Of a stretch of DNA of 46,536 bases, positions 4,842-46,536 are shown in pieces. The position numbers were made by a program, and so were the translations under genes. The notes below the pieces were generated by a model. It saw only the letters and a program-made list of their open reading frames with translations, ran no database searches and was not told the origin of the DNA. Numbering within the stretch: the first letter of the stretch is position 1; the number at the start of each line of letters is the position of its first letter. Origin of the DNA: Bradymonadales bacterium (GTDB lineage: Bacteria; Myxococcota_A; UBA9042; PWKZ01); NCBI GenBank assembly GCA_003559575.1, contig PWKZ01000228.1:1-46536 (forward strand), in the 5' to 3' direction.

Positions 4842-4935
4842 TTTCGCGGGACATCAAGAGAAAGCTTTTCTCGCGAGGGCTTCTCCCTGGAGCCTTTTAG
4901 CTCGCCCGCGGAGCTTGTTGGTAGCACGGCCGGCC

Positions 4936-6662: not shown

Positions 6663-6835
6663 TCGTCGGCCCATCCTGGGATTCGCGCGCGGATTCACGC
6701 ACATCTGCGGCGTCACCTGCACCGAATTAGTGCTCGACGTAGGCTCTGCTACGCCTCCGCCTAAGAACGGCTTGGTTCCTTGCACATGCACGCGCCTCCA
6801 CACGCTCGCTCCTCAGAACGAACCGACGACTATGG
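6657..6835 (+). mobile_element. Full ~179-bp MITE/REP-like element between convergent genes
   Basis: CCATAATCGTCGG ... CCGACGACTATGG (1 mismatch). Confidence 0.75.
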
Positions 6836-6873
6836 CACCGCTGATTGCTTGCGCGCGAGATCCCTGGTTGGGG

Positions 6874-7521: not shown

Positions 7522-7552
7522 GTCCTTAGCTCCGCGGCCGGCAAGAATGACT

Positions 7553-12271: not shown

Positions 12272-12309
12272 CCTCCCCCTCAATCCACGGACGCGATGGA
12301 GGATTGAGG
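12272..12309 (-). repeat. Solo hairpin module (reverse orientation, degenerate)
   Basis: cctccccctcaatccacggacgcgatggaggattgagg resembles 35387-35427. Confidence 0.75.
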
Positions 12310-15675: not shown

Positions 15676-15683
15676 CCCTCGCC

Positions 15684-15724
15684 CCTCACTCCTCCACCGC
15701 GTCCGTGGATCGAGGGGAGTGAGG
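15684..15724 (+). repeat. Solo 41-bp hairpin module directly downstream of lon
   Basis: CCTCACTCCTCCACCGCGTCCGTGGATCGAGGGGAGTGAGG, with complementary ends; near-identical to 46417-46457. Confidence 0.85.
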
Positions 15725-15773
15725 CGCCGTTGTCCAGATGCCAGGACGAACCGCGGTGTGCTAGGCTCGGGCC

Positions 15774-23488: not shown

Positions 23489-23693
23489 AGGCCCCTCCCT
23501 CCCCCCTGTCTTGACACGAAAAGCCCGAGGAGGCCAGCCGGTGCCTCCACCTCGCGTCATGGGTGATATTCCACTGTCGTCCGTGTCGGGTGTTACCTCC
23601 ACGGTGCCGCGGGAAGCGCGCTTGTTTTTTTGTTGCATTCGATCCGGCGCTTCGCGCTCCCACGCTTGGCGCCGGTGGTGAGTGAGTTGAGTA

Positions 23694-29600: not shown

Positions 29601-30518
29601 GGCCGCTTGGGCGACGAGCGGGTCGTCTCTGATCTTCGCGCGCGCCCGCTGGGCCGCGAGATGGTTCAACCACTCGGCTCCGATGCCGTGGTGCTCATCA
29701 CCGGCGGGGCGCGTGGGATTACGGCGCGCGTGGCGGTGGAGTTGGCCAAGCGTTTCGGCTGCCGCCTCGTGCTGGTAGGGCGCTCGCCTGCGCCGCAGGA
29801 GGAGGAGCCCGCCGAGCTGGCCGCGCTGCCCGACGCGGTGGCGTTGCGTCGGCACCTCGCGCAACAGGGCGATCTCGGGGGGCCGCGGGAAATAGACGCC
29901 GTCGTGGCGCGCCTGCTGCGAGAGCGGGAGATCCGCGCGACCCTCGGTGGTATCGCCGCCGCCGGCTCCGAAGCCGAGCTGTGCGCGCTCGACGTGCGCG
30001 ATGAGGAGGCGTTCGGGGCGCTCATCGACGACATCTATGCGCGCTACGGACGGTTGGATGGTGTCATTCATGGCGCCGGAGTTCTCGAGGACCGGCTCAT
30101 CGAGGACAAATCGGAGGCATCTTTCGCGCGAGTCTACGATACGAAGGTCAGGGCCGCCCGCGTGCTGGCCCACAAATTGAGGCCGGGCCTCGACTTCGTG
30201 GTCTTCTTCGCGAGCGTCGCGGGCTTCTTCGGCAATCGAGGGCAGGTGGATTACGCCGCCGCCAACGACGCCTTGGATCGCCTCGCCCACGCCCTTAGCG
30301 GCCGCCTTGCACGTCGCGTGGTGGCCGTCGACTGGGGCCCGTGGGGCGGCACCGGGATGGTTGGCACCGAGTTGGCGCAAGAGTGGGCGCGCCGCGGCGT
30401 CGGCCTCATCGAGACCGACGAGGGCGTGGACGCTTTGTTGGACGAGATAAGCCGCGGCGCGCCGCAAGAATCCCAGGTGATCCTCATGCGCGCCGATCCC
30501 GAGAGTCTTGGAGGATGA
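23694..30518 (+). CDS. Iterative type I PKS/FAS (ArsA/PUFA-synthase-like): tandem FabK/NMO-like ER - KS - AT - ACP - KR
   Basis: YPIVQGPM, EGRECGGH, FAGGI (FMN TIM barrel); KS DAACASS, EAHGTGT, KSQIGH; AT GHSYG, AFHS; ACP DLSIDSI; KR GGARGIT, YAAAN. Confidence 0.93.
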   Translation: MIRDFSFLGLSPFLIPDDRLTIALCRAGALGVLELGRDPAAARAALSTVARQVPAGFGVRVTSGTAVEPASLPREVRVVVLPADVPAAPWAGRERLVQVTSIEEARAAIEAGADGLIAKGSESAGRVGECSTFVLAQALLAADSLLGGRPVFLQGAIGLHAAAAAFAGGASGVVLDDALALLRESRLDQAARKLISGLDGSETTVLGGHRVFLRPGFLAADLAADQSDPTAAEVEALIGGTDPSTNLLPMGQGIGLAARYADRYRTVAGLLSALSDNVATSLRLAQAANPLAPQSPLAEALGCRYPIVQGPMSRVSDSPAFALAVAQAGGLPFLAVGLKSGPALSDLLRETATHLAGRPFGVGLLGFAPPALWEEQSALVLAARPRAAIIAGGRPSQARLFEERGIQTWLHVPSPGLLDLYLEDGARRFIFEGRECGGHVGPRGSFALWEAQIERLMCFEAPEELHVLFAGGIHDRRSAAMVAALAAPLAARGARLGVLLGTGYLFTEEVVATGALLPGFQRAALDCRRTRVLRSAPGHESRCADTDYVAAFEAEHARLVAEERSPDEIWEALERFNLGRLALAAKGLDQRGAEGVPCDERTQRREGMYMLGELSALRTEVVTIGELHEDVSEGSARLLAERARFRTTAAATSADEAAAGAAPADVAIVGIACAFPDAPDLARYWANILDGVDCITEVPDERWSKEIYYDGDSRGDGHTYSKWGGFLPQIAIDPLAYGIPPRSLAAIDPVQLLSLEMARRALEDAGYGDGALGRWFDRERTAVIFGAQPGADLAGAHGFRALYPQLVGPLPEALAERLPELTEDSFPGVLGNVISGRIANRLDLGGTNYTVDAACASSLAALQVAIRELLAGTSDMVLCGGADVHNSINDYQLFSSVHALSPTGTPRTFDASADGTTISEGVAVLVLKRLRDAQRDGDRIYAVVRGLGAASDGKSLGLTAPRREGQSRAVQAALRQAGISPRALGLVEAHGTGTVVGDKTELEALREQFEAAGASAGGCVLGSVKSQIGHTKCAAGLAGVIKAALSVERGVRPVTPNVEQPNPAWRGERSPFVFMPQTQPWSAEERSAGVSAFGFGGTNFHAIVSSPPAPADELLCTRDEWPAELLLFRGPDQDHARRRMERLAALLEGRTTWRLRDLARTTSSGGEGPVRAAVLARDIPDLRAKLERARSFESDPRGVFVAPERPLAQSGQVAFLFPGQGSQRPGMAADLFVTFPALRRHLQAGARHVAQMFPPKTFGPEGEKAQQEALTDTRVAQTALGMVGLAMADLLLRFGVRADMAAGHSYGEIVALAAAGALAADELPELSGARGAAILETALAREDDPGCMAAVKISRARLEEIFPALAGGHADGVVLANHNAPEQCVLSGPSATLERMLSSLAEDGHRGRRIPVACAFHSPLVAGAGEKFAGHLARAKVSVPRFPVWSNTTASPHEARPAAIRALLAEQVERPVRFVEQIEAMYQAGARVFVEVGPGKVLSGLVGQILGERPHTVVATDSPGQHGLVALQTALAALAVHGVAVDSEALHAGRDSRKYDLESAPSLALPQSAWLVDGHLARPLTGEVPKGALQPMGPPLGIAPATSEAPGEGREAVVMNYLAMVKELVATQREVMLSYLGTPPSEPTPARAVAPGAPEVTASEEQIAPGPAEGEAPAEEEAPALLDAARLSALLLDLISERTGYPLEMLDLDLDLEADLSIDSIKRIEILGALGRLIGIDEETGERDQVFEELAKQKTIRGIVAWLDERLRATSDEEPTAAREAASAKDGAAVPGADEPAVRPPDLQRFVVGLRGAPVGRMNGTLEGRQVAVTDGSPELARALVKAFAGRGLKAVVVTNGETKGCHALVDLTALGNGGADPVKGVFKQVRHAIQSGTERIVVASALGGRLGYAAASDERLGHGGLGGLVKTVAKERPEIALRVVDLNPAARAEANAAFLVEELLAEGPEREVGRLGDERVVSDLRARPLGREMVQPLGSDAVVLITGGARGITARVAVELAKRFGCRLVLVGRSPAPQEEEPAELAALPDAVALRRHLAQQGDLGGPREIDAVVARLLREREIRATLGGIAAAGSEAELCALDVRDEEAFGALIDDIYARYGRLDGVIHGAGVLEDRLIEDKSEASFARVYDTKVRAARVLAHKLRPGLDFVVFFASVAGFFGNRGQVDYAAANDALDRLAHALSGRLARRVVAVDWGPWGGTGMVGTELAQEWARRGVGLIETDEGVDALLDEISRGAPQESQVILMRADPESLGG

Positions 30519-33500
30519 GTAAGTCGGGCGACAACGGCGTGGCCATCGTGGGAATGGCGGCGCTCTTTCCCGGGGCGCCGGATCTCGCCACCTACTGGCG
30601 CAACATCACAGCCGGGGTGGACTCGATCAGTGAGATCCCGGAGCACCGCTGGGAGAGCGAGTTCTTCGACCCGCAGAGCACGGCGGTCGACCGCTTCCCG
30701 GTGCGGCGCGGCGGGGTCGTCCCGGAGCCGCTGTTCGACGCGCTCGCCCACGGCATCATGCCGGTGGCGGCCAAGGGAGCCGAGCCCGATCAGCTCGTGA
30801 TGCTCGACCTCGGAGTCCGCGCGTTGGCTGACGCAGGCTACGGAGAGGGGCTGCGAGAGTTCGATCGCGGGGCGACGGCGGTGATGCTCGGGCGGGGCAA
30901 CTACATCGGCGCCGGGATGACTCGGCTCGAACAGCATGTGCGCACGAGCGCCCAACTCGTGACCTGCCTGCGGACCCTGGTGCCCGGGATTACCGAGAAA
31001 ACGTTGGCGGCCGTCAAGGCGGAGTTTCAAAGTAAACTCGGCGCTTACGGTGGAGACACGGCGATCGGGCTGGTGCCCAATCTGACCGCCTCGCGTCTCG
31101 CCAACCGGCTCAATCTCCGCGGGCCGGCCTACACCCTGGATGCCGCTTGCGCCAGCGCGCTCGTGGCCACCGATCTGGCACTCCGCGAGCTTCTCATGGG
31201 GCGCGCGGCGGTGGCGCTCGCGGGCGGGGTCCACCTCACTCACGACGTGGCGTTCTGGAGCGTCTTCGCGCAGCTTCAAGCACTCTCGCACAGCGGCTGC
31301 ATTCGGCCGCTCGACCGCCTGGCCGATGGGTTGTTGCCGGGCGAGGGCGGCGGAATGCTGGTGCTCAAGCGCCTCGCCGACGCCGAGCGGGACGGGGATC
31401 GGATCTACGCCGTGCTGCGCGGAGCGGGGGTGGCGAGCGACGGTCGCGGGGCCGGCCTGATGGTCCCCCGGATCGAAGGCCAGCTCCTGGCGCTCGAGCG
31501 GGCCTGGTCCGAGGCGCGCCACGCTCCCGAGGAGGTGGGCCTCATCGAGGCCCACGGCACCGCCACGCCGGTGGGGGACGCGGCCGAACTCGAGACTCTG
31601 GCGCGGTTTTTTGGCAAAGCGGAATCCGATGGCCCTCCGCGCGCCGTGATCGGTTCGGTGAAGTCGATGATCGGCCACGCCATGCCCGCCGCCGGCGCTG
31701 CGTCGCTCATCAAGACGGCGCTCGCCGTCTACCACGGCGTGTTGCCGCCGACGCTACATTGTGATGAGCCGCACCCGGCGATGGCGGGGACGCGCTTCCG
31801 GCCGCTCGCGGCGAGCGAGCCCTGGGAGGAGCGCCGGCGGTTGGCCGGGGTCAACGCCTTCGGCTTCGGCGGGATCAACGCCCACGTGGTGTTGGAGTCG
31901 CACGGAGCGCGCGCAGTCCGCCGGCGACACCGCCCGGGGGGCCTCGCGCCGGAAGAGATCTTGGTGCTGGCGGCTGATTCACCGGGCGCGCTTCGTGAGG
32001 CGCTCGAGTCCGGGCGGACGGAGGTCGGTGAGGGTGCGTGCCGCCTGGCGCTCGTCGATCCGACGCCCGCGCGTCGGACCAAGGCGCTCGAGGTAGTGCG
32101 CGCCGGCAAGCCGCGCCGCGGGCGGGACGGGCTGTGGTTCAACACCGAGGGGCTTTTGACCGCGGGCGGCCAGGTGGCGTTTCTGTTTCCGGGGATCGAG
32201 GCGGCCTTCGAGGATCGGATCTCGGATATTGCGCGGCACTTCAACCGCCCGTCGCCCCCGACCCCGCCGGGCACCGTCGCCGGGACCAAGGCGCTCGAAT
32301 ACCAGGGGGCGATGACGGTCTTTGCCGGGCGGCTGCTCTTCGATGTTCTGGGGGAAGTGGGGATTAAGCCTTCGCTGCTCGCCGGCCACAGTATCGGGGA
32401 GTGGACCGGCATGATCGCCGCCGGGATCATCCCCGCGGACGTTTTCGAGGAGTTCTGGGCCACCCTGACCCCCGGCTCGCTCGAGGTGCCGGGGGTCGTC
32501 TTCGCCGCGGTCGGCGCCTCGGCCGAGGCGGTGCGGCCGCTCGTGACCGACCTCGACGGGGTGGTCGTCACCCACGACAACTGCCCGCACCAGGTGATCC
32601 TCTGCGGCCCGGAGGCCCAGCTCGACACCGCCCTCGTTCGGTTGCGCGACGCGCGCTTCCTGGGGCAGAAGCTGCCCTTTCGCTCAGGCTTCCACTCACC
32701 GGTCTTTGCCGACTACCTCGCCCCGCACCGGGAGCGCTTCGCGCGTCTTGCGCTTGGGGCTTCAAAGATCCCCCTGTGGTCGGCCACCACCTGTCGCCCG
32801 TATCCGAGTGATCCCAAGGCTATCGAGCGGTTGGCGCTCGACCATCTCGTCCGCCCGGTGCGTTTCCGCGAGTTGATTTTGGCGCTCTACGAGCATGGGG
32901 TGCGGGCTTTCGTTCAGCTCGGCTTCGGGAGCCTTGTGGGGTTCGTGGACGACACGCTGCGGGGGCGGGAGCACGTGGCGCTCTCCGCCGGCGCGCCGCA
33001 GCGCAGCGGTCTCGAGCAGCTTCGTCGAGTGGCGGCGGCGCTCTTCGTCGAGGGGGCGCCGGTGGACTGGACCCGGCTGTTTCCCTCGTCGCGAGGCGCG
33101 GGCGCCCGCATCAGGCTAGAGCTCGGGGTGCCGCTCGTGCGGCTCGAGCGGTCCCTCGAGGGAGCGCGCATTCCTCATGACGTGCGCGCTCCTGAGCGCG
33201 GCGCCGACAGCCCGGTGCAGCGCGGCTTCGAGGCCGTGATGCAGGAGCTCGTCGACTCGCAGGAGGCGGTGCGCCGCGCGTGGACCGCCGGCCCTGCGCC
33301 CCCCTCGGCGCCGCGCGAGAAGGTTGTCCGCCGGCGGCTCTCGGTCAAGACGGATCCGCATCTTCTCGATCACTGCCTGATCCCGCAGCGGCCCGGGTGG
33401 CCGAGTGTCGCCGATCGCAACCCGGTGGTCCCGATGACCATGATGATTCGGATGATGATGGACGCCGCCGTGGCGCTCGTCCCGGATCGCGTCCCGATTG

Positions 33501-34786
33501 CCGTTGAAGATCTGCTGGCACACACCTGGCTGGCCGTCGAGCCGCCGGTGGAGGTGGCGATCCGCACGACTCTGGTGGCGCCCGACCGTGTGCGGGTGGT
33601 GATCGAGGGCTCTGCTGAGGCGGTGGTGGTCCTGGCCGAGCGCTACCCCCAACCGCCGGCGGCGCCGGTGGTCGGCCTCACCAACCCGCGCCCCTCCGAG
33701 GTGAGCGGTGCGGCGCTGTATGAGGATCGCTGGATGTTCCACGGCCCGGCCTATCGTTCAGTGACCGAGATCCTGGAGTTCGGGGAAGATGGGATCCGCG
33801 GTCGGATCCGCCCCTTGCCGGCCGAGGGGGCGCTGCTGGACGGCGCGGGTCAGCTCTTTGGCTACTGGGTGATGCAGAGCGTCGAGCGAGATCGCCTGGC
33901 GATGCCTATCAAGTTGGGCGCTCTGCGCCTCTTCGGCCCCGAGCCGCGGGAGGGGGAGGAGCTCGTGTGTACGGCCTGGTGCCGGCACCTGGGCCGCCGC
34001 GAGGTGCGCGCCGAGATGATGATTACGGATCGCGACGGGCACCCGTGGGCCCGGCTCGAAGGGTGGACCGACTGGCGGTTCGAGACCGACGAGCGACTGT
34101 GGCGCATCATGCGTCGCGCCGAGCGGCACCTGTTTGCTGAAATGACCCCGGAGGGGCTCGCCGTCGTCTTCGAGCCGGAGCGCAGCGCGGCGAGCCGCGA
34201 TTACCTGGCGCGCCGGTTCTTGAATGAAGAGGAGCGGCGCACCTGGGCCGAGACGCTCGCGCCGCGGCGCCGCACGCCGTGGCTCTACGGACGGATCGCC
34301 GCCAAGGACGCCGTTCGTCATTGGCTCATGGCTCGCGCGCGGGGATTTCTCTTTCCGGCCGAAATCGCGGTCGAGAATGACGAGACGGGCCGTCCGCGTG
34401 TCGCCGGCCCTCAGCTGCCGGACCTGCGGCTCTCCATCGCCCACAAGGAGACCATCGCGGTGGCTTTTGTGGGAGAGGGGCGCGAGGTGGGGGTCGATGT
34501 GGAGCGCTACGAGCCCCGCTCCGCGGAGTTTGGGGAGTTGATCTGTGCCCCCGAGGAGCTGCGGCGGCTGCCTACACAAGAGAGAGAGGCGTGGCTGACG
34601 AGGGTCTTTTGTGCCAAGGAGGTTATCGGCAAGAGACTTGGGACGGGGCTCGCGGCCGCACCCAAGCGCCTCCCGGTGACCGCCGTCGAGGCGTCGCCGG
34701 GCGCGATGAGAGTCCGGATCAAGGACGAGTGGGTGACCTTGCGCGATTACGGCGAGCATGTGATCGGGTGGTCGGATGGAACCTGA
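30515..34786 (+). CDS. Type I PKS subunit: KS - AT - DH - Sfp-type PPTase
   Basis: ATGA-coupled to the previous gene; KS DAACAS, EAHGTAT, KSMIGH; AT GHSIG, GFHS; DH LLDH...PVVP, MFHGPAY, LLDGAGQ; PPTase AAKDAV, VGVDVE, FCAKE. Confidence 0.92.
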   Translation: MSKSGDNGVAIVGMAALFPGAPDLATYWRNITAGVDSISEIPEHRWESEFFDPQSTAVDRFPVRRGGVVPEPLFDALAHGIMPVAAKGAEPDQLVMLDLGVRALADAGYGEGLREFDRGATAVMLGRGNYIGAGMTRLEQHVRTSAQLVTCLRTLVPGITEKTLAAVKAEFQSKLGAYGGDTAIGLVPNLTASRLANRLNLRGPAYTLDAACASALVATDLALRELLMGRAAVALAGGVHLTHDVAFWSVFAQLQALSHSGCIRPLDRLADGLLPGEGGGMLVLKRLADAERDGDRIYAVLRGAGVASDGRGAGLMVPRIEGQLLALERAWSEARHAPEEVGLIEAHGTATPVGDAAELETLARFFGKAESDGPPRAVIGSVKSMIGHAMPAAGAASLIKTALAVYHGVLPPTLHCDEPHPAMAGTRFRPLAASEPWEERRRLAGVNAFGFGGINAHVVLESHGARAVRRRHRPGGLAPEEILVLAADSPGALREALESGRTEVGEGACRLALVDPTPARRTKALEVVRAGKPRRGRDGLWFNTEGLLTAGGQVAFLFPGIEAAFEDRISDIARHFNRPSPPTPPGTVAGTKALEYQGAMTVFAGRLLFDVLGEVGIKPSLLAGHSIGEWTGMIAAGIIPADVFEEFWATLTPGSLEVPGVVFAAVGASAEAVRPLVTDLDGVVVTHDNCPHQVILCGPEAQLDTALVRLRDARFLGQKLPFRSGFHSPVFADYLAPHRERFARLALGASKIPLWSATTCRPYPSDPKAIERLALDHLVRPVRFRELILALYEHGVRAFVQLGFGSLVGFVDDTLRGREHVALSAGAPQRSGLEQLRRVAAALFVEGAPVDWTRLFPSSRGAGARIRLELGVPLVRLERSLEGARIPHDVRAPERGADSPVQRGFEAVMQELVDSQEAVRRAWTAGPAPPSAPREKVVRRRLSVKTDPHLLDHCLIPQRPGWPSVADRNPVVPMTMMIRMMMDAAVALVPDRVPIAVEDLLAHTWLAVEPPVEVAIRTTLVAPDRVRVVIEGSAEAVVVLAERYPQPPAAPVVGLTNPRPSEVSGAALYEDRWMFHGPAYRSVTEILEFGEDGIRGRIRPLPAEGALLDGAGQLFGYWVMQSVERDRLAMPIKLGALRLFGPEPREGEELVCTAWCRHLGRREVRAEMMITDRDGHPWARLEGWTDWRFETDERLWRIMRRAERHLFAEMTPEGLAVVFEPERSAASRDYLARRFLNEEERRTWAETLAPRRRTPWLYGRIAAKDAVRHWLMARARGFLFPAEIAVENDETGRPRVAGPQLPDLRLSIAHKETIAVAFVGEGREVGVDVERYEPRSAEFGELICAPEELRRLPTQEREAWLTRVFCAKEVIGKRLGTGLAAAPKRLPVTAVEASPGAMRVRIKDEWVTLRDYGEHVIGWSDGT

Positions 34787-34799
34787 GGATGAGAGAAGC

Positions 34800-35078
34800 A
34801 TGAGCGCGACACAAGAGGCGGTCTTGGCGACGGTGGCTCGGATTTTGGTGGAGGTGATTGGTGAGGAGTGGGCTGATGAGACCCCCATCGAACTGGACAC
34901 CTCGTTTGCCGACGATCTGGAGCTTGAGAGTATTGAGTTCGTGGCGTTGGCCGAGCGGTTACAAGAGCACTACGGCGCGCAGGTGGACTTTGTGGGGTGG
35001 CTCTCGGACAAGGAGCTGGACGAGATAATCGCCCTCGAGGTCGGTGACCTGGTGGATTTCATCGTGGCAAAGCTCTGA
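34800..35078 (+). CDS. Stand-alone acyl carrier protein (alternative start 34776)
   Basis: Small acidic protein, FADDLELESIEFVAL...VGDLVDFI. Confidence 0.9.
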   Translation: MSATQEAVLATVARILVEVIGEEWADETPIELDTSFADDLELESIEFVALAERLQEHYGAQVDFVGWLSDKELDEIIALEVGDLVDFIVAKL

Positions 35079-35100
35079 CCCGCGACGCTTGGGGCAGCTC

Positions 35101-35250
35101 TCAGGGCACACCGTCGGAGGGGTTCTTCACTCGCACCCCACGGATGAGTTGCTCGTCTTGGAGGTCTTCTGTGACGAGGTACGCGCAAGCGGCAGAGTCG
35201 GCCGCGGCAATCACAAGCGCCTCCCACAACGCCAGCCGTGAGAGCACGGA
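35101..35250 (-). pseudogene. 3' remnant of a PIN-domain (VapC-like) toxin gene
   Basis: LALWEALVIAAADSAACAYLVTEDLQDEQLIRGVRVKNP matches the PIN C-terminal pattern (WDALI.AAA...C..L.SED.Q.G......I.NP); the 5' part is replaced by the repeat at 35251. Confidence 0.75.
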
Positions 35251-35427
35251 CCATAATCGTCGGCCCATCCAGGGATTCGCGGACGGATTCACGTACATTT
35301 GCGGCGTCACCTTCACCAAATCGATGCTCGACGTAGCGTTGCTACGCCTCCGCTCGATTTGGCTTGTTTCCTTGCACTTGCGCCCGCCTCACTCCCCTCG
35401 GTCCACGGACGCGGTGGAGGATTGAGG
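35251..35427 (+). repeat. Hybrid repeat copy: TIR left end + core + hairpin module as right end
   Basis: Starts CCATAATCGTCGGCCCATCC; ends CCTCACTCCCCTCGGTCCACGGACGCGGTGGAGGATTGAGG. Confidence 0.88.
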
Positions 35428-35507
35428 CCGGGTTTGCCAGTTACCTCCAGTTCGGCGAAGATGTGCTCGACTTGGGCGCGGTGAGAGCGCGGGCACGACA
35501 GGGTTGA

Positions 35508-36320
35508 GTGATGGGTTTGGCAAGCTTGCGGCGTTTTTTGTACTTCCCGGAGCGGCTCCCGGTGGACGCTCCGCTGCCGCCCCACGCACGTGGGGCGCGC
35601 GAGGTGTGGTTGGAGGCGGCGGACGGCGTGCGCATCCACGGGCTCTACTGGGCGCCGCCCCCAGGCCGCCCGGTGGTGCTCTTTTTCCACGGCAACGCGG
35701 GGGAGGTCTACCAGTGGGCCCTGGTGCGCCACGATCTCGCCGCGCTCGACTCCGGGCTGCTGATAATCGACTATCACGGCTATGGCAAGAGCGCCGGCAA
35801 GCCGAGTGAGGCGGCGCTTCATGCCGACGGAGAGGCGGCTTTGCGGTGGCTCGGCGACGAGGCCGGAGTGGCCGCAGAGCGGGTCGTGCTCCACGGCAAA
35901 TCGCTCGGCGGTGGCGTCGCCGGTCGGTTGGCGGCCACGCACGACGTGCTGGGGCTGATTTTGGAGTCCACGTTCACGTCGATCCCGGGGGTGGCGGAGA
36001 ACCTTTTTGGGCGCTTCTTGCCGATTTTGGGGACCCGCTCGTGGGAGAAGATGATGCCCGACCGCTTCGCCACGGTCGAGCATCTGGCGGCGGTGCGCTG
36101 CCCGGTCTTGGTGGTCCACGGCGAGCGCGACTCATTGATCCCCGTGGCCCACGCGCACTCGCTGTTTGAGGCCGCGCGCGAGCCGAAGGAGCTTTATCTG
36201 GTGCCCGCCGGCGATCACAACGACGTGGCCTGGGTGGCGGGGGAGAGCTACGGGCGGCGGCTTCGCGAGTGGCTCGCGCGCTGTCTTGCGCGGGCCGACC
36301 GGCGGGTCGCCGAGGAGTGA
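35508..36320 (+). CDS. Alpha/beta hydrolase (ABHD13/BEM46-like)
   Basis: FFHGNAG, DYHGYGKSAGKPSE, GKSLGG, ESTFTS, VHGERDSLIP, DHND. Confidence 0.92.
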   Translation: MMGLASLRRFLYFPERLPVDAPLPPHARGAREVWLEAADGVRIHGLYWAPPPGRPVVLFFHGNAGEVYQWALVRHDLAALDSGLLIIDYHGYGKSAGKPSEAALHADGEAALRWLGDEAGVAAERVVLHGKSLGGGVAGRLAATHDVLGLILESTFTSIPGVAENLFGRFLPILGTRSWEKMMPDRFATVEHLAAVRCPVLVVHGERDSLIPVAHAHSLFEAAREPKELYLVPAGDHNDVAWVAGESYGRRLREWLARCLARADRRVAEE

Positions 36321-36341
36321 GTTCGAACCAGGCTTGGGGCG

Positions 36342-38309
36342 GTGACTTCTTTGAGCATTGCAAGCGACGAGACAGAACGAACTCGCCCCGGTGAAGAGAT
36401 CCTTGGCGGGAGACTGAGCCGGGCGCGCTTCGCCCGCCTGCTCGGGCTCGCCGCCGGCGATCCCTATCGAGTGACCGAGGTCTCCGGCCGGGGCCGCGTC
36501 GTCCACGTGCGCCTCACCCAACTCTCCGAGACGGAGTCGGGTCCCGCTCCCGCCACTTACGATTTCTTCTTTGAGGCTCGCCGGCCGGATCGGCGCGGGC
36601 TCCTGAGTGGCGCGCACCTGACCCTATGGCATCACGGCGCGGTTCTGCCCGCCGGGCTCAAGGCGGGTCTCGCGCGGCGCACCGGGCCGGCGCTCGCCCG
36701 CCTGCGCTTCGAGGACTTGCTGGCGGCCCTGCGTGCCGACCCCGAGCACACAAGCGCGCTCGAGGAGCGCGCGGCGAGCGCCGGGGTCGACGAGCGCGAA
36801 ACGGTCGGCTCCGGCCCGGCGCTTCACGAGCTGGAGAGCTGCTCGGTGCCGTCCACCGGCTGCCACGCCTTGACGGCGCCGGCCATTTACGCCGACTTCT
36901 TTGCCGCCCAGGAGGTGCGCCGCGCTTCGGGGTGCGACACCGTCGACATCTACTCGGACAACACGCTCATCGCCCATGGGGACTTCGAGTGCTCCTATTG
37001 CGCCGTCACCGTCCCCGCCCCGCGCTATCACTTCCTGCGGCTGGGGGTGCAGGAGAGCGTGCGCGACGTGGGGCGCCCGCGCCACGCGCGCGGGCGGTTT
37101 CAAGAGTCGGCCTCGGTGACCGACACGTTCTCGACCGATATCAATGAGACCGACGTGATCCTCGGCGAGTTCGGCGGGGTCGCGCGCGTGCTCGATCACG
37201 CCGCCGCGCACGGCGAGAAAGATCAGCTCATGTGTGTCGGGCTCTGCCTGCCGGACGTCATCGGCGCCGATCTCGAGTCGGTGGTGGCGCGCCACCCCGA
37301 GAGCCCCTCGAAACCCTTGCTCTTCGTCCCCCCCGCGCCCCGCTCCTGGAATTGGCTGGCCCACGATCTGCTCAAAACGAGACGCAAGCGGCTGGACTCT
37401 GAGTACGCCGCCGCGCCCAATCCACGCGCCATCAACCTAATCGGGTTTCCGGACAACCAGGGGACCGCCCGGCTCACCGCGCTGCTGGCCGAGTTTGGCG
37501 TCGAGGTCAACACCCACGTGCTCCCCGGGTTGCAGCTCAAGGCGATCGCGCGTTTGCCGCGGGCGGCCCTCGATGTCTATTGCCCGAACGTCTACTGGGA
37601 GCGGGAGTATGGCTTTCTCGGCGACGAGAGCCCGCGCCCCGGTCTGATGCCGGACGGCCCGTTCGGGCTCCAGGGGACCAAACGCTTCCTGCGCGCGGTG
37701 CTGGCGGCGCTCGAGGGCGAGCGCCGCGCTGAAGCCGCCCTCGAGGCGCGCTTCGAGTCTGCCGCGCGCGCGTTGACAGCGCCCTGGGGCGCGCGCTGTC
37801 GCCAGGCGGCTGAGCATCGTCTGGGGTTCGCAGTGCCGGCGCACGGGGTCCACTGGCTGCTCGACTCGGCCCATTCGTGGGGGCTCCCGCTGCTCGAGAC
37901 GACTTACGAGATGGGGTTCGGGCTGGACCTCTTCGTGGGCGCGGCCGACGCCGCGGCCGCGACCGCCGCCGCCGACCGGTTGGCCGGCCAGCTCCCCGAC
38001 GGCGCGCGGGCGCGGGTGGCGCTGCACACCTTCCACTCGCTGCCCGAGATGATGGCCGCGCTCAGGGAGAGCGAGTGCGAGGCGCTCTTCTCCAACTTCG
38101 TCTTCGACTGGCGGGTGAGCCGGGCCGGCAAGATGCCGTTTTCGACCCTCGAGTTCGAGATGGGGCTCGAGGGCGCCCTCGCGACGGTCGAGCGGCTCTT
38201 GACGATTTGCCGCACGCCGCTCTACCGGCGGTTTCGCGAATTCTTGCCGGAGACTCCGCGCCCCGGAGACTCTCCGCCGCGCGCCGCGCGCGCCTTGGAG
38301 GAGCGATGA
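36342..38309 (+). CDS. Nitrogenase component-1-like oxidoreductase subunit A, with an unassigned N-terminal extension
   Basis: HGDFEC (cf. HGPxGC), FSTDINETDVILG (cf. STDLxExDIxFG), LCLPDVIGADLESV (cf. TCxxxxIGDD), INLIG, GVEVN, PFGLQGTKRFLRAV, MGLEGA. Confidence 0.8.
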   Translation: MTSLSIASDETERTRPGEEILGGRLSRARFARLLGLAAGDPYRVTEVSGRGRVVHVRLTQLSETESGPAPATYDFFFEARRPDRRGLLSGAHLTLWHHGAVLPAGLKAGLARRTGPALARLRFEDLLAALRADPEHTSALEERAASAGVDERETVGSGPALHELESCSVPSTGCHALTAPAIYADFFAAQEVRRASGCDTVDIYSDNTLIAHGDFECSYCAVTVPAPRYHFLRLGVQESVRDVGRPRHARGRFQESASVTDTFSTDINETDVILGEFGGVARVLDHAAAHGEKDQLMCVGLCLPDVIGADLESVVARHPESPSKPLLFVPPAPRSWNWLAHDLLKTRRKRLDSEYAAAPNPRAINLIGFPDNQGTARLTALLAEFGVEVNTHVLPGLQLKAIARLPRAALDVYCPNVYWEREYGFLGDESPRPGLMPDGPFGLQGTKRFLRAVLAALEGERRAEAALEARFESAARALTAPWGARCRQAAEHRLGFAVPAHGVHWLLDSAHSWGLPLLETTYEMGFGLDLFVGAADAAAATAAADRLAGQLPDGARARVALHTFHSLPEMMAALRESECEALFSNFVFDWRVSRAGKMPFSTLEFEMGLEGALATVERLLTICRTPLYRRFREFLPETPRPGDSPPRAARALEER

Positions 38310-39706
38310 GCGCCCCCAAAGGGGCCGGCAAAGGGGCCGGCGATATGTCGCTGCGGGCCTGCTTGCCCCGCTCGGCCGGGTTGAGCGTCGCGTTGAACGC
38401 CATCCCCGACGCGTACCTGCTGCTCGATGGCCCGCACTGCGCCTTCAGGCGCCTTGTCTACGTGCAAGGCAACCACGATTGGGGTGCGACGCTCGCGCTG
38501 CATCCGGGTTTGCCGCGCGTCACCAACACCGATCTCGATCCCCTGAAGGGCGTGCGGAACCGTGAGCCTCAACTCGAACGCGAGATTGCCGTTCTGGCGA
38601 GTCGTCCCGAGGTCGGGGGGGTGCTGGTCGACGGCCTCTCGATGGCCGTCGTGACCGCCACCGACTATCAACGTCTCTGCCGGCGGGTGGGCGCGAAGTG
38701 TGCCAAACCGATCCTCTCCTTGCCGCATCGCTCGCTCACGTCCGATTGGCTGGCGGCCTACCAAGAGGTGCAAGAAGCCCTCGCCTCCGCATTGCCGCTC
38801 GCGCCGCGACGACGCGCCGGCAAAAAACCCCGAGTGGCGCTGGTGGGGCACCTGTTTGATCGCAACGAGGGCGATCACCGCGGCAACCTCGAAGAGTTCA
38901 AGCGGATCTTCGAGGCCCTCGGCTTGACGCTGCTGCCGCCGTGGTTGTCCGGCGCCCCGCTGCGGGATCTCGCGCGGGCCGGTGCCGCCGACGCCGTCGT
39001 GTCTCTGCCCTACGGGCGGCGGGCGGCGCGGGTGCTGGCCGAGAGGATCGGGCGGCCCTTGATCGAGTTGGAGCTGCCGCTCGGGCTCCCCGCCACGCTG
39101 CGGTTCATCTACTCCCTGGCGGCGGCCTTTGGTAGCCGGGCGCGGGCCGAGAGCTTCGTCGCCTCCGAGCTTGGCCGCGCGCTGGCCGCGATCGAGTGGC
39201 TCGTGCCGTTTGCGTTCGTCCACCGGCGCATCGGATACATCGGCGATCCGCACATCTATGCCGGCTTGCGTGAGACGGCGGCGTTGGTGGGCCTCCGCAT
39301 GGTCTTTGCCGCCGTCACCAACGAGCGCCTCCACGGGCGCGACACGCTGCCGCGCGAGCCCTCCCGGGTCGAGGCGGCGGTGCCCGAGACCCTGGCCTGT
39401 GGCGCTCCCCCAAGTGAGCCCGATGAGCTGTTGTGGTTTCCCAAGGCGCGCACGCTCAGGGATTGCGTCCGGCGCCTGGTGGCCGAGGAGGGCTTGGATC
39501 TCCTCGTCACCAACAGCTACGGCGCCCTCTTCGAGGGGGTCGGGATAGTTGAGCTGGGCTTCCCGAGCTACTATCGCCACAGGCTGCACTCGCGCCCGTT
39601 TCTGGGGTTCACGGGCGCGCTTTGCTTGTTTGAGGATCTGGCCAACACCATCCGGCGCTTGGAGGTACGGCGCGCCAACCTTTCGCCCAAGCCGGAGGCG
39701 GGATGA
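38306..39706 (+). CDS. Nitrogenase component-1-like oxidoreductase subunit B
   Basis: ATGA-coupled; ALNAIPDAYLLLDGPHC, NTDL, GNLEEFKRIFEALGL, LPLGLPATLRFI, IGDP, GFPSY...PFLGFTGALCLFEDLAN. Confidence 0.82.
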   Translation: MSAPKGAGKGAGDMSLRACLPRSAGLSVALNAIPDAYLLLDGPHCAFRRLVYVQGNHDWGATLALHPGLPRVTNTDLDPLKGVRNREPQLEREIAVLASRPEVGGVLVDGLSMAVVTATDYQRLCRRVGAKCAKPILSLPHRSLTSDWLAAYQEVQEALASALPLAPRRRAGKKPRVALVGHLFDRNEGDHRGNLEEFKRIFEALGLTLLPPWLSGAPLRDLARAGAADAVVSLPYGRRAARVLAERIGRPLIELELPLGLPATLRFIYSLAAAFGSRARAESFVASELGRALAAIEWLVPFAFVHRRIGYIGDPHIYAGLRETAALVGLRMVFAAVTNERLHGRDTLPREPSRVEAAVPETLACGAPPSEPDELLWFPKARTLRDCVRRLVAEEGLDLLVTNSYGALFEGVGIVELGFPSYYRHRLHSRPFLGFTGALCLFEDLANTIRRLEVRRANLSPKPEAG

Positions 39707-40827
39707 GCCGCGATCCGCGCTTTGACCGCTTCTTGTGCCAGGAGAGTGTCTGGACCAGTGTCGAGTTGCTCTCTCGCGGGCGCGCCTTGCCCGCGCCGCT
39801 GACGGTGGAGTGGCACCTCACCTCGGCTTGTAATCAGCGTTGCCCGCGCTGTGTCAGCCGCGATCTGTTGAATGGCCCGTCGTTCAGCCGGGAGCGCGCC
39901 CGCGCTTTGGCCCGGGAGATGTCCGACCTCGGGGTGCGGGCGGTGGTGCTGTCGGGGGGCGGGGAGCCCTTGTGCCACTCCGGGGTGGCGGAGGTCGCCG
40001 CGCACCTGGCGCGCAACGACGTGCTTCTGGGCGTGGTCACCAACGGGCTCCTGCTCGGTCGCCACGAGGCGGTGTTGGCCGAGAGCTGCCGGTTTGTCCG
40101 CCTCTCGATCGACGCCGCCACCGCCGCCACCCATCGCCGGGTGCGCCCCGCCGCCGGTGCCGGCGAGAGGGTTTTTGACGATCTGCTGGGCAACATCGAG
40201 CGCTTGACGGCTCGCGGGGGCTGCGAGTGTGAGTTCTCGTTCGTGGTCTATCACTCGCCGGCGCGGGCTGGACGAGCGGCCTGGAGCAACGTCGGCGAGC
40301 TTGCGGCGGCGGCCAAGCTGGCGCGGGAGCTCGGCTGCGACAGCTTCGAGGTGCAGCTCGCGTTTGACGCGCGGCTCCAATTGGCCGCCACCACCCCCGC
40401 GCTGCGGAGACAGTTGGCGGCTCAGTTGGACGAAGCCCGCGCGCTCGCGCGCGAAGGCTTCCGGGTCACTGAGGGTGCGTTTGTAAGCGCGTTGCTCGAA
40501 GGGGGCGGCCGTCCCTCGCACCACAAGCCTTATGCGCGCTGTCCCGCAGTGCGCTTGAGCACGCTGGTGACCCCCTATGGCGCGTTCCTGTGCCCTTATC
40601 ACAGCGCGCACGCTGTGAGCTACGGCGATCCTCACACGAGCGCGCTCAAGGATCTGTGGCGCTCCGCCGAGCTTGGCCGGGTCCGCGACAAGATTCGGCC
40701 GGTGGACGACTGCAACTTCCATTGTATGTACGATCCGTTGAACCGCGCGGTGCTGGCGGCGCTCCAGGACTTGCGGGCGACGGGCGCGCGCCCGAAGCTG
40801 CGGCCGGATATGGACCTCTTTATCTAG
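39703..40827 (+). CDS. Radical SAM protein with SPASM/Twitch-like C terminus
   Basis: CNQRCPRC, SGGGEP, VTNG, RLSIDA; C-terminal C...G..LC...YGD...LW...CNFHC; ATGA-coupled. Confidence 0.93.
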   Translation: MSRDPRFDRFLCQESVWTSVELLSRGRALPAPLTVEWHLTSACNQRCPRCVSRDLLNGPSFSRERARALAREMSDLGVRAVVLSGGGEPLCHSGVAEVAAHLARNDVLLGVVTNGLLLGRHEAVLAESCRFVRLSIDAATAATHRRVRPAAGAGERVFDDLLGNIERLTARGGCECEFSFVVYHSPARAGRAAWSNVGELAAAAKLARELGCDSFEVQLAFDARLQLAATTPALRRQLAAQLDEARALAREGFRVTEGAFVSALLEGGGRPSHHKPYARCPAVRLSTLVTPYGAFLCPYHSAHAVSYGDPHTSALKDLWRSAELGRVRDKIRPVDDCNFHCMYDPLNRAVLAALQDLRATGARPKLRPDMDLFI

Positions 40828-40908
40828 CGCTCTCCAGAAAACCCGTGGATCCCGCGGGTGGCTATCAGCTTAGTCCCCGTGATGACCGCTGCCCGCCGTC
40901 TCCGGCTG

Positions 40909-43245
40909 CTAGTCGGGAGGGCGCCATTCGTCGGGCGCGGGGCGGCCCCAGAAATCCCGCAAGACCTCCTCCGGCGAGTCTTCCTCCAGCTCGGTGACCC
41001 ATGTCTCGTCGTCGGTGGGGAAGTCCTCCGCCTCGTCGGGCGACGCCCCTTCGATCCGGCGCCGCTCATCCTCTCTGCGGCGTCGCTCACGCTCTTGCCT
41101 GAGCCGCCTGGCGCTCATCCCGCGCGAGAGCGCTTGAACGCGGCTCGACGAGTTGAAGGTCAGCCAGAGCATGAAGTAGAGCGGGTGAAAGTGGTAAAGC
41201 AGCCCGTTCCACTCACCACCGAAGCGCAGCCCGATGTGTTCGGCCACCTCGCTATTCAGCCACACGAACGGCAGAAAACGTCGGATCTCGCGGGTGAACA
41301 CCCCGTCGCGCCGGCGCGCGGTGCGGTCCCGAAAGAGCCTGTCGAACTGCTGGGTCTTCTCGGCCCAGGTCTGGGCGTCGGCCAGGGCCTTCACCCAGTT
41401 GACCTGATCGCTCCACTCGCTCACATGGCGCGTAATGGCTTTGCGCAACCACTCCCGGGCGGTCTCGTTCTCGCCGGGGACGGCGAAAAAGTCCTCGATG
41501 GTCGTCGGCAGCACCTCGCGGTTTTTGCGCTGAAAGAAGCTCCGGCTATGCCGGCGTCGTGAGGTGCCGGTAAAGAGGCCGAGAATGTCGTCGGTCTCGA
41601 TTCTGAGACTCCGGCCCACGTCCTCCTCGATCTCGACCCAGAAGCGCGCGTGAGTGCCCATATCGATGGCTTTTTGCCAGGAGCCGTCGGCGAACACCTC
41701 GACGTGAACCATCGGTTTCATGCCGTCGCCGTCGTCGAACATCCCGAGCTGTCCGATGGTCTCCCCGGCCGGCACCAGGATGCGGCGGTCTTCCGGTTCG
41801 AGATCGAAGAGCGCCACTTGGCCCCGTCTGAGCGCGGCCAGGCGGCGGCCCACCTCGAGATAGGGTTCCGCGGATTGCATTCCGAGGGGATCGTCGTAGT
41901 CCTGCAGGCCGATGTCCGCGAGCGGATCATCCTCCCGCAGCGCGCTGAGGTCGAGCGCTTCTTCACGCTCACGCTCCTCCCCCTCGTGGAGCCGAACGAC
42001 TTTGCGCAGCCACTCGACCGGGGGGGTGTTGTGCTCCGTGTCCAGGTTCTCCAGGTGCATGAAGAGCGAGAAGACTCTCAGCGTCTCGGTGCGGGGCATG
42101 GGGATGTCGTGGCGCAAGAGGACGAAGTTGTTACTGCCGAGCGGGGTGTTGTGCTCGGAGCCGGTGCGGCCCTGCCCGAATCGCGCCGCCACGAGGACGC
42201 CGTCGACCATGGCGTGCACCTCACGGCCTCGCGGTCCGTGCAGGTGAATGCCGCCGTGCCAGTTCTGGTTGATCCCGATGGGGTAGTAGCCGCCGCCGCC
42301 CCTCTCGTTGTTGCGATAAAGCTCGTTGGCCGCCTCGTGCACCAGCTCCGGCGCAAGCAGGTCGGCCACGTTTTGGCCGGCGCGGGTGAGCATCGGGAAG
42401 CTGTTGTGCTCGCCTCGCAGCGCATGGTAGAGGCGCTGCCAATCGAACCCGGGGCCGGGATCCCAGCGGTTGGCCGAGGTGTGCCAGTGGGCGGCGATCC
42501 CTCTGAACCCAAAGGGATCATCGAGCATCGAGGCGATCACCTCACCTCGCTCGTCGACCGGGTGCTCCATTGGGATGTCGAGCACCGAGCAGACCACCTT
42601 GATTAGCTCGATCAGGGTTATGTACTGCGGATCGGTGTAGCCGTAGCTCTGGACCCGAGCGCCGTTGATTCGCATCACCTCGCTCACCGGGCGACGATGA
42701 AGCTTTGGATCGGCCTCCTCAGGGTGGCGGTACGCCTGCCCTTTGTGCCGGCCGTGTAGCTCGGGGAGATCGTTGTTGAGATCGATCCCCACCGAGCGGC
42801 GGTTTTGTTCGGCGGCGTGCAGCGCGACGTAAGTGCCGGGATCGGCGCACTGATAGAGCGTGCCGTCCCAATCGATGATGAAGTGGGTCGACAGCCCCTT
42901 GGCAATCAGCACTTGTTGGGTCAACCGGGCCGTGCGGAGCCCGTCGGTGTGCAGGATCGCCACCTCGGTCGCCTGCCGCGCGTATTCGAGGTTGGTCCCC
43001 ACCGGCACGGTGCCCACCCCCTCGACCCGGGCGCGGCGCGGCAAGAGGTAGCGCTCCCGCTCGACTCCCGGTGGCGCCTGGACATTGCGGTAGTCCCAGT
43101 AGGGATCGTCTCTGAAGGTCACCACGCGGACATTGCCCGCGAGGGGGTGCCACTCGCCGCAGATCCAGATGCCGGCGCGTCGTCGCTGTTGGCCAATCAT
43201 CTCGTCCGTCTCTCCATTTTCAGCGGTCAGCTCATGATTTTCCAA
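40909..43245 (-). CDS. Amidase_2-type N-acetylmuramoyl-L-alanine amidase fused to a split M23-like domain
   Basis: ILHTD, STHFIIDWDG, HA...NRRSVGIDL, AHWH...WDPG; then WHGGIH, FVLLRH, SLFMHL, GETIG, VHVEVF, SEW, YHFHP. Confidence 0.82.
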   Translation of the reverse strand: MENHELTAENGETDEMIGQQRRRAGIWICGEWHPLAGNVRVVTFRDDPYWDYRNVQAPPGVERERYLLPRRARVEGVGTVPVGTNLEYARQATEVAILHTDGLRTARLTQQVLIAKGLSTHFIIDWDGTLYQCADPGTYVALHAAEQNRRSVGIDLNNDLPELHGRHKGQAYRHPEEADPKLHRRPVSEVMRINGARVQSYGYTDPQYITLIELIKVVCSVLDIPMEHPVDERGEVIASMLDDPFGFRGIAAHWHTSANRWDPGPGFDWQRLYHALRGEHNSFPMLTRAGQNVADLLAPELVHEAANELYRNNERGGGGYYPIGINQNWHGGIHLHGPRGREVHAMVDGVLVAARFGQGRTGSEHNTPLGSNNFVLLRHDIPMPRTETLRVFSLFMHLENLDTEHNTPPVEWLRKVVRLHEGEEREREEALDLSALREDDPLADIGLQDYDDPLGMQSAEPYLEVGRRLAALRRGQVALFDLEPEDRRILVPAGETIGQLGMFDDGDGMKPMVHVEVFADGSWQKAIDMGTHARFWVEIEEDVGRSLRIETDDILGLFTGTSRRRHSRSFFQRKNREVLPTTIEDFFAVPGENETAREWLRKAITRHVSEWSDQVNWVKALADAQTWAEKTQQFDRLFRDRTARRRDGVFTREIRRFLPFVWLNSEVAEHIGLRFGGEWNGLLYHFHPLYFMLWLTFNSSSRVQALSRGMSARRLRQERERRRREDERRRIEGASPDEAEDFPTDDETWVTELEEDSPEEVLRDFWGRPAPDEWRPPD

Positions 43246-45375: not shown

Positions 45376-45555
45376 CCATAATCGTCGGTTCGTTCTGAGG
45401 AGCCCCGCTAAGTGGAGTCGCGTGCATGTGCAAGGAAACAAGCCGAATTAGGCGGAGGCGTAGCAGCGCTTAAGTCGAGCACTAATTCGGTGCAGGTGAC
45501 GCCGCAGATGTGCGCGGATCCGCGCGCGAATCCCAGGATGGGCCGACGATTATGG
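45376..45555 (-). mobile_element. Full 180-bp MITE/REP-like element between divergent genes
   Basis: Perfect 13-bp TIR CCATAATCGTCGG/CCGACGATTATGG. Confidence 0.75.
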
Positions 45556-45573
45556 ACCTTGAGGAGGGAGTGA

Positions 45574-46364: not shown

Positions 46365-46536
46365 GCACTAATTGGGTGCAGGTGACGTCACAGATGTGTG
46401 TAAATCCGTCCGCGAACCTCAATCCTCCACCGCGTCCGTGGACCGAGGGGAGTGAGGCGGGTGCAAGTGCAAGGAAACAAGCCAAATCGAGCGGAGGCAA
46501 ACGCAGCGCCTACGTCGAGCATCGATTTGGTGAAGG
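46365..46536 (-). repeat. Partial core (46365-46416) abutting a hybrid copy that begins with the hairpin module (46417 to window end)
   Basis: 46417-46536 is nearly the reverse complement of ~35309-35427. Confidence 0.88.

Follow-up and report, generated by a model that had tools for sequence, protein, structure and literature searches.

Organization of the nitrogenase-like operon

The 46,536-nucleotide (nt) stretch of DNA analyzed here (positions 1 to 46,536 of contig PWKZ01000228.1 from the Bradymonadales bacterium assembly GCA_003559575.1, referred to below as the window) carries an operon encoding two proteins related to nitrogenase component 1 and a radical S-adenosylmethionine (SAM) protein. 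A preliminary description of this DNA had recognized three genes joined by two ATGA overlaps, and both overlaps were present in the sequence (38306 to 38309 between genes A and B and 39703 to 39706 between genes B and C), with a GGAGG motif 5' of each. All of the genes of the unit lie on the plus strand. Gene A (36342 to 38309) has a GTG start and encodes a 655-amino-acid (aa) NflD-like, alpha-type subunit, gene B (38306 to 39706) encodes a 466-aa NflK-like, beta-type subunit from an ATG inside a longer open reading frame (ORF; 37877 to 39706), and gene C (39703 to 40827) encodes a 374-aa radical SAM protein with one predicted auxiliary cluster of the twitch/SPASM-like type. The coupling of A, B, and C was upheld, but the extent of the unit had been underestimated. 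An alpha/beta-hydrolase gene, ABH (35508 to 36320; 270 aa), lies upstream on the same strand with 21 nt between its stop codon and the start of A, and the unit therefore has four genes, of which ABH is the first. A polyunsaturated fatty acid (PUFA) synthase-like cluster farther upstream had also been overlooked. ABH matched the Pfam models Hydrolase_4 (E = 2.5e-13) and Abhydrolase_1 (E = 4.1e-10) and reached no NCBIfam cut-off, and the ABH-A junction was spanned by Logan contigs of three independent runs (X1, X3, and X5). ABH-A-B-C is a genuine four-gene operon consisting of a hydrolase, the NflD-like A, the NflK-like B, and the radical SAM protein C. Downstream, an Amidase_2-containing ORF that is convergent to the operon ends at 40909. 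A promoter and terminator scan of positions 34900 to 41100 returned no promoter-like signal and a single terminator-like signal, located inside the hydrolase gene, and shuffled sequence gave more.

Family assignment of subunits A and B

When checked against Pfam, both A and B scored above the cut-off of PF00148, in agreement with the earlier view that they are nitrogenase component-1 proteins. B covered almost the entire profile (E = 7.4e-40, 137.5 bits), and A matched it over residues 252 to 479 (E = 4.3e-18, 65.8 bits; cut-off, 28.6 bits). The AlphaFold2 model of A had a pLDDT of 86, and its top Foldseek matches were NifD and NifE chains (best E = 6.9e-15; TM score of 0.60 on the target), so that the component-1 fold expected of Group VI members of the NFL family was found in both subunits, through PF00148 and through the structural match of the A model. 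When a profile of NflD sequences was compared with the sequences of the PDB, the best match was chain A of 9FMG (MarDK2H2; E = 1.5e-30, profile positions 229 to 461 of 609), and NifE chains ranked second.

Neither A nor B, nor C, reached any curated NCBIfam cut-off. The nitrogenase models gave 43.6 bits against a cut-off of 427 for nifK (with B), 16 against 486 for the nitrogenase alpha subfamily, and 19 against 505 for NifE. The models for other members of the superfamily also scored far below their cut-offs, with 26 to 34 bits against cut-offs of 490 to 509 for BchB (26 against 509 for A), 31 against 529 for BchZ, 25 to 26 against 324 to 420 for BchN, and 17 against 268 for CfbD (with A). 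The source genome is metagenome-assembled genome (MAG)-like, with 3.95 Mb in 306 contigs and a completeness of 92%, and the nifB model had no match anywhere in it, C included. The two subunits therefore do not belong to NifDK, VnfDK, or AnfDK, for which their scores were far below the cut-offs and no nifB was found, and they do not belong to BchNB, BchYZ, or CfbD, as the PF00148 genes of this genome are three NFL pairs only. They are not MarDK proteins either, because there was no nifB-model match and there are too few conserved cysteines; the partial match to 9FMG denotes relatedness only. On the NCBIfam cut-offs, A and B thus fall outside every characterized equivalog.

A search with B returned 143 homologues at an E value of 0.001 or less from 8000 candidates scored. 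Those with named sources were MAG proteins of Elusimicrobia, Myxococcales, Polyangiaceae, or "Deltaproteobacteria." The match of B to a protein of Elusimicrobia bacterium GWA2_69_24 had an E value of 5.6e-76, whereas no NifK or BchB of known structure matched B with an E value better than 1e-9. The sections of Meheust et al. (2020) used here describe a "group VI" nitrogenase paralog that occurs alongside many radical SAM genes in Elusimicrobia (with GWA2_69_24 cited), Gracilibacteria, and 14 Myxococcales genomes, and the preliminary description had pointed to this same group. From their sequences, A and B are assigned to Group VI as NflD and NflK members, respectively. They group with the Elusimicrobia and Myxococcales paralogs and not with Nif, Bch, or Cfb proteins, a placement that rests on the score contrast and the NCBIfam cut-offs because our tree held no rows from the Nif, Bch, Cfb, or Mar families. 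The group had been called biochemically uncharacterized, and this still holds according to the part of the Chem Rev 2026 review consulted, which presents Group VI as the only major branch of the nitrogenase superfamily without a characterized member.

The NflK tree was built from 68 rows with a quick IQ-TREE search under LG+G4 and contained no outgroup. In this tree, B fell into a seven-row clade with P0002, P0003, P0004, P0008, P0010, and P0011 (SH-aLRT support of 99), and the sister group of this clade consisted of 42 Myxococcota rows, with some subclades NflH-adjacent and others NflH-less; the whole assemblage lay amid Elusimicrobia rows. The identity of B to its orthologues in the clade was 48 to 61%, with P0002 closest at 61%, and the terminal branch of B measured 0.35, compared to a median of 0.29. 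No member of the clade other than that of the window itself was detected among species-representative genomes. A B homologue was present in 60 of the 401 genomes of a phylum sample, with a best identity of 46%, and a class-wide search of 107 genomes found no relative above this value; the order contains two genomes only. A scan of genome contigs (16 loci) gave relatives of B at 38 to 42% identity and none of its closest orthologues, and a scan of metagenome contigs (19 loci) gave full-length relatives at 38 to 43% identity and one 75-residue fragment at 49%.

In A, an N-terminal domain (approximately residues 18 to 135) is followed by a disordered linker (residues 143 to 174) and then by the nitrogenase component-1 core. 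We collected 610 representative NflD relatives of A, mostly of approximately 600 aa, of which 181 had E values of 1e-30 or less. Many of these relatives align starting at approximately residue 16 of A, which indicates that the N-terminal extension (approximately 200 to 250 residues) is conserved. When residues 18 to 135 (window positions 36393 to 36746) were modeled alone, a confident alpha/beta domain was obtained (pLDDT of 88). No clear counterpart of this domain was found in the PDB, where the best Foldseek E value was 0.16, and with VIA-align, the best Z score was 5.1, for the C-terminal domains of RseB and MucB, with lipid-binding folds among the weak top rows. As modeled, the domain is without a clear fold match, from which it does not follow that its fold would be new.

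Conserved residues and the predicted Fe-S cluster

Residues A-E216, A-C217, and A-C302 were invariant in 47 sequences, and A-H212 was conserved in at least 90% of them. In B, D35 and D58 were invariant in 56 sequences, and C45 was at least 90% conserved. A-C302 aligned with the cysteine of the "TC..(I)GDD" motif in NifE and in chain A of 9FMG, and B has "PMA" where NifE carries its cluster cysteine. The stretch that contains B-C45 and B-D35 gave no significant alignment to solved structures with either the full or the N-terminal profile. A-C217 and B-C45 are the putative equivalents of the first P-cluster cysteines of NifD and NifK. Three cysteines together with a presumed noncysteine ligand suggest a simple [4Fe-4S] cluster, and this prediction agrees with the phrase "at most four cysteine residues" in the part of the Chem Rev 2026 review consulted. 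As judged from the conserved cysteines, the "PMA" stretch of B, and the lack of a nifB match, the operon shows the Group VI pattern, in which no more than four of the six P-cluster positions hold cysteine and FeMo-co machinery is absent. With no nifB match in the genome and only three conserved cysteines, nitrogen fixation is unlikely, as the preliminary description had already concluded.

We considered whether the pair is a decaying paralog, a redundant copy that no longer has its NflH and is on its way to losing its function. In line with this, there is no NflH gene in cis, and the pair does depart from its relatives at some positions that are conserved in at least 90% of them. However, the frames are intact, the starts are coupled and preceded by GGAGG sites, none of the family-invariant residues has been lost, the branch is of normal length, and the seven-member clade is a set of orthologues. 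Decay is therefore extremely unlikely. The A/B pair is intact with respect to its frames, its coupled starts, and its family-conserved residues, and the unremarkable branch of B and the existence of orthologues of the operon proteins at 52 to 61% identity point the same way.

NflH-like proteins in the genome and NflH-less loci

The preliminary description had stated that the operon has no NifH partner. No match to PF00142, the NifH family, was found on the contig of the window, and in this respect the statement was correct. It did not hold for the genome, in which two strong PF00142 matches were present on other contigs, designated C60 and C196. The search for relatives of A and B elsewhere in the genome gave six PF00148 matches in total, or exactly three D/K pairs, two of which likewise lie on other contigs. 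C60 carries a radical SAM gene close to its genes for NflH (270 aa), NflD (691 aa), and NflK (474 aa). C196 carries a B12-radical SAM gene, a 999-aa ORF in which NflH and NflD are fused (5241 to 8240), and an NflK. A was 30% identical to the C60 NflD over its full length, including the N-terminal extension (E = 3e-66), and B was 33% and 31% identical to the NflK proteins of C60 and C196, respectively. Both NflH-like proteins scored below the NifH, CfbC, BchL, and BchX cut-offs. Since the two NflH-like genes are found at other loci, the absence of a NifH partner is true of the window and not of the organism, and the term "minimal" that had been applied to the system has to be withdrawn, given that each of the two other NflDK pairs of the genome has an NflH-like protein encoded beside it. 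The expectation that a Group VI pair is encoded together with its cognate NflH is thus not borne out at the window locus and is borne out at the level of the genome.

We also compared the gene neighborhoods of other NflK genes. There were 47 distinct locus rows, some of them nearly identical; 1 had no adjacent NflD, 6 had insufficient flanking sequence, and 40 could be assessed. NflH was adjacent to the DK pair at 24 of these 40 loci, was elsewhere within the locus at 4, and was missing at 12. NflH-less loci are thus frequent, and an adjacent NflH is not a universal feature of loci in this family. Each of the five genomes with an NflH-less locus that were searched encodes an NflH elsewhere. 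These results, together with the two NflH-like genes of the source genome, are in favor of NflH acting on the A/B pair in trans.

Ten unusually long relatives of A provided further information on the partners of NflD. Eight were NflH-NflD fusions of approximately 870 to 1070 aa (P0309, P0336, P0376, P0380, P0349, P0321, P0409, and P0332), which implies that H and D are tightly coupled in the Group VI family. The other two were fusions between radical SAM and NflD domains in both possible orders, with the radical SAM domain N-terminal in P0303 (976 aa) and C-terminal in P0293 (1161 aa). The latter two offer Rosetta-stone-type support for a direct partnership of NflD with radical SAM proteins. 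The fused radical SAM domains are not orthologues of C (P0303 shared 36% identity with C over 101 residues, and P0293 gave no match). By word search of the main texts of Meheust et al. (2020) and the Chem Rev 2026 review, we found no mention of the N-terminal NflD domain or of either type of fusion.

These data bear on the possibility that A and B need no Fe protein and bind directly to C, which they would serve as a scaffold or as a low-potential electron relay. By analogy, the operon would then resemble NifEN with NifB in layout, not in chemistry, and would be self-sufficient. The radical SAM-NflD fusions, the translational coupling of B to C, and the existence of whole tree subclades of NflH-less DK loci are all in keeping with such an arrangement. 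It is opposed by the failure of the fused radical SAM domains to be C orthologues, by the fourfold-higher frequency of NflH-NflD fusions (8 versus 2 of 10), by the NflH genes found elsewhere in 5 of 5 tested genomes with an NflH-less pair, and by the lack of a nifB-model match for C. On balance, we consider an NflH-independent partnership rather unlikely.

The radical SAM protein C

The preliminary description had identified C as a radical SAM/SPASM protein. C exceeded the cut-off of PF04055 (E = 3.3e-11, 44.1 bits; cut-off, 29.5) and remained below that of the SPASM model (14.4 bits; cut-off, 21.5), and seven of its cysteines, three in the N-terminal group (C43, C47, and C50) and four in the C-terminal group (C280, C297, C337, and C341), were invariant in 9 of 9 family members. 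The identification therefore stands, with C having both the CxxxCxxC motif and the C-terminal cysteine-rich auxiliary-cluster domain of SPASM/twitch proteins. The best NCBIfam match of C was to the mycofactocin maturase MftC (56.6 bits; cut-off, 265), and an ESM Atlas search with C returned generic radical SAM clusters only. There were 19 C homologues at an E value of 0.001 or less, the closest being P0122 at 55% identity, and the next relatives, at 34 to 42% identity, were Armatimonadota and Nonomuraea records and metagenome contigs. For both P0122 and P0002, the orthologue closest to B, the record gives a JGI contig of 70,645 bp, and this equal size hints that B and C are also neighbors in an orthologous genome.

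Radical SAM genes were not limited to the window locus. In three relatives, 5 of the 10 ORFs that flank the DK pairs encode radical SAM proteins, some of them with B12 or methyltransferase domains, so that radical SAM neighbors were found here, in relatives, and at the two paralogous loci on C60 and C196. The association with radical SAM proteins is a trait of the Group VI family. At the window locus, the ATGA overlap of B and C, together with the radical SAM flanking ORFs of the relatives and the 2 of 10 fusions, argues that the pair is coupled to a radical SAM protein. A predicted complex of A residues 18 to 640 with C had a score of 0.00, which we counted neither for nor against this partnership.

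On contig C196, the region 4 to 8 kb downstream of NflHDK (13707 to 17280) encodes HemE, a HemY-type oxidase, and a radical SAM/SPASM protein that resembles AhbD, with a score of 401 bits where the cut-off is 500. Of the three NFL loci of this genome, this was the only one seen to have a tetrapyrrole context nearby. The finding is relevant to a reading in which A/B reduces a porphyrinoid C=C bond and C modifies side chains toward a cofactor. A role in tetrapyrrole reduction has been proposed in print for Group VI generally, and C itself weakly matched AhbD, NirJ, and AhbC (36 to 51 bits, over the N-terminal core only). No tetrapyrrole gene was present among the window ORFs scanned, however, and the matches of C to AhbD and NirJ were far below cut-off and no better than those to peptide- or cofactor-modifying maturases. 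The published proposal, as presented in the sections of Meheust et al. (2020) used here, is based on gene context and NifH phylogeny only. A tetrapyrrole substrate for A/B thus seems fairly improbable; it would be compatible with the reading preferred below, in which NflH acts in trans on a pair that shares a substrate with C.

The neighboring PUFA-synthase-like cluster

The region from 18214 to 35078 of the window holds a whole pfa-like, PUFA-synthase-like cluster for a secondary lipid. Its core consists of two polyketide synthase (PKS) genes and an acyl carrier protein (ACP) gene on the plus strand: PKS1 (23694 to 30518) has PfaD-type ER, KS, AT, ACP, and KR domains; PKS2 (ORF 30341 to 34786, for which homologues suggest a length of approximately 1423 aa) has a KS, an AT/CLF-like region, two DH domains, and a PPTase; and the ACP gene (34776 to 35078) lies 3' of PKS2. 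Two hydrolase genes (22724 to 23878 and 21913 to 22797) and a GT1 glycosyltransferase gene (20756 to 21949) lie inverted on the minus strand upstream of PKS1. PKS1-PKS2-ACP is a pfa-like "secondary lipid" synthase.

The NFL unit follows this cluster on the same strand in the assembled window, and we asked how the two are related. The module could modify the product of the synthase, for example by reducing or cross-linking a polyene chain, and the hydrolase gene at the head of the unit and the lipid-binding folds among the weak structural rows for the NflD N-terminal domain (Z of 5.1 or less) could be viewed in the same light. The comparative data were not in accord with this. In 6 of 6 relatives, the cluster has the order PKS1-PKS2-ACP-hydrolase-hydrolase-glycosyltransferase on a single strand and contains no NFL gene. 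Among 19 other genomes of the phylum with a PKS2 homologue, only 1 (G279) also has a B homologue, and this is on another contig. PKS genes were absent from all of the DK loci compared. PKS2 had 5177 homologues at an E value of 0.001 or less, in several phyla, whereas the C family has 19 members, and none of the 120 PKS2 homologues listed, out of the 5177, was on a contig of 70,645 bp, and hence no link between the PKS and the orthologous contig emerged. The words "nitrogenase" and "radical SAM" are absent from the main text of Shulse and Allen (2011). The inversion of the hydrolase and glycosyltransferase genes upstream of PKS1 indicates that the block has been rearranged and that the junction between the ACP gene and ABH is secondary. 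Tailoring of a lipid or polyketide by the module is thus very unlikely, and the PKS cluster is probably not a functional partner of the NFL unit.

The junction itself is a noncoding spacer of 430 nt (35079 to 35507) that contains one copy (approximately 35241 to 35435) of a dispersed repeat of approximately 150 to 190 nt. In a blastn search, this repeat gave 470 high-scoring segment pairs (E value of 1e-10 or less) on 234 of the 306 contigs, and 266 of these segment pairs were within 300 nt of a contig end; since the copies are mostly near contig ends, the repeat probably fragments the assembly. Further copies in the window are at 1 to 94, 2870 to 2992, 3367 to 3633, 6656 to 6798, 12276 to 12309, 15684 to 15726, 45415 to 45561, and 46371 to 46536. 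The G+C content is 0.55 to 0.59 in window positions 1 to 8000, where several of these copies lie, and 0.65 to 0.71 elsewhere in the window. Read depth over 35171 to 35504 in four public runs was approximately 280 to 4700, versus approximately 1 to 9 in adjoining bins. None of the Logan contigs listed spans 35278 to 35400, those from the ACP side ending at 35277 to 35280 and those from the hydrolase side starting at 35401; because Logan contigs break at repeats, the missing bridge neither confirms nor refutes the assembled join between the ACP and hydrolase genes. Five public DNA runs shared window words at a proportion of at least 0.78, and all were labeled as metagenomes from soda lakes, salt lakes, or alkali sediments; the sample from which the window derives may be among them. 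The runs listed included none of RNA.

Several interpretations of this region were rejected. The NFL unit is probably not the 3' end of a PUFA-synthase-like operon, as the adjacency was found in no other genome searched, the gene order is broken, and the spacer carries a repeat. A 93-aa ORF (35144 to 35425) is not a gene, since it corresponds to the dispersed repeat and has no Pfam or NCBIfam match, and a guess that the minus strand of the spacer retains a PIN-toxin remnant was abandoned because no Pfam match was obtained and the region is the repeat. An Rfam search of 35000 to 35600 gave a single match at chance level (14.7 bits; gathering score, 50).

Discussion

Taken together, the above-described results lead us to propose, with a probability of roughly 0.55, that ABH-A-B-C is an accessory catalytic module of the Group VI NFL system that is served by NflH in trans and acts on an organic substrate shared with C. 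A and B would form an NflDK complex with an inter-subunit Fe-S cluster, probably [4Fe-4S], for which the candidate ligands are A-Cys217, A-Cys302, B-Cys45, and one noncysteine residue, perhaps B-Asp35 or A-His212. Electrons would be delivered in an ATP-dependent manner by one of the two NflH-like proteins, the C60 NflH or the C196 NflH-NflD fusion. The NflDK complex would then reduce the organic substrate, C would work on the same substrate before or after this reduction, and the ABH hydrolase might release or trim it. The substrate would not be N2, and the window offers no connection between it and either a tetrapyrrole or the neighboring polyketide/lipid synthase.

Several observations weigh against this proposal. 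There is no NflH gene in the 46.5-kb window, and the distant NflH genes are tied to the pair by their co-occurrence in the genome. The ligand roles of B-Cys45 and B-Asp35 are presumed from known motifs, and profile alignment did not map them. Near the predicted cluster site, several positions that are otherwise well conserved also differ between B and the Myxococcota proteins closest to it, which could reflect an altered or lost function. No C-type radical SAM gene was found beside any other NflDK locus compared, and members of the C family are found in records from Actinomycetota and Armatimonadota as well, so that C may have no need of NflDK. Finally, the placement of P0002 and P0122 on a shared contig follows solely from the equal contig sizes.

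The module can be compared with several known systems. It resembles other Group VI NFL loci in its divergent NifD/NifK-like subunits, few P-cluster-type cysteines, lack of NifB, several copies per genome, and radical SAM neighbors, but it differs from them in having no NflH in cis, a rare type of radical SAM protein, and a separate seven-member clade. DPOR (BchL/BchN/BchB) and CfbCD share the nitrogenase-like fold with A/B, and all of them probably hold one inter-subunit [4Fe-4S] cluster instead of a P-cluster plus cofactor. The cluster of DPOR is ligated by three cysteines and an aspartate, and mixed cysteine and noncysteine ligation is plausible for A/B as well. Unlike these enzymes, NflD has an extra N-terminal domain of approximately 135 residues, and no genes of their pathways are near the window pair. 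MarBHDK and isethionate reductase likewise combine a nitrogenase-like DK core and a radical SAM gene in one locus; however, MarB is NifB-like and builds [Fe8S9C], whereas C resembles SPASM/twitch maturases. In NifEN with NifB, a DK-like pair also adjoins a radical SAM/SPASM-type gene, and NifE was among the Foldseek matches of A, but C is not NifB and the genome has no nitrogenase to accept a cofactor.

The coexistence of radical SAM-NflD and NflH-NflD fusions suggests a broader possibility, which we regard as unlikely, that Group VI NflDK proteins are dedicated redox partners that dock onto radical SAM enzymes and are not tetrapyrrole reductases. The N-terminal domain of NflD would then serve as a docking or substrate-holding module, and A-B-C would be the smallest natural two-enzyme unit of a nitrogenase-like protein and a radical SAM protein, acting on a nonporphyrin substrate.

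The window locus is one more member of a family that has already been flagged in print, and its apparent connection to a PKS cluster fails as a functional link. The fusions and the N-terminal domain caution against assuming the tetrapyrrole hypothesis for this family. The N-terminal NflD domain, the NflH-NflD fusions, and the radical SAM-NflD fusions are concrete biochemical handles that apply across the family, and the four-gene unit, with two NflH candidates in the same genome, is a tractable and compact entry to the biochemistry of Group VI.

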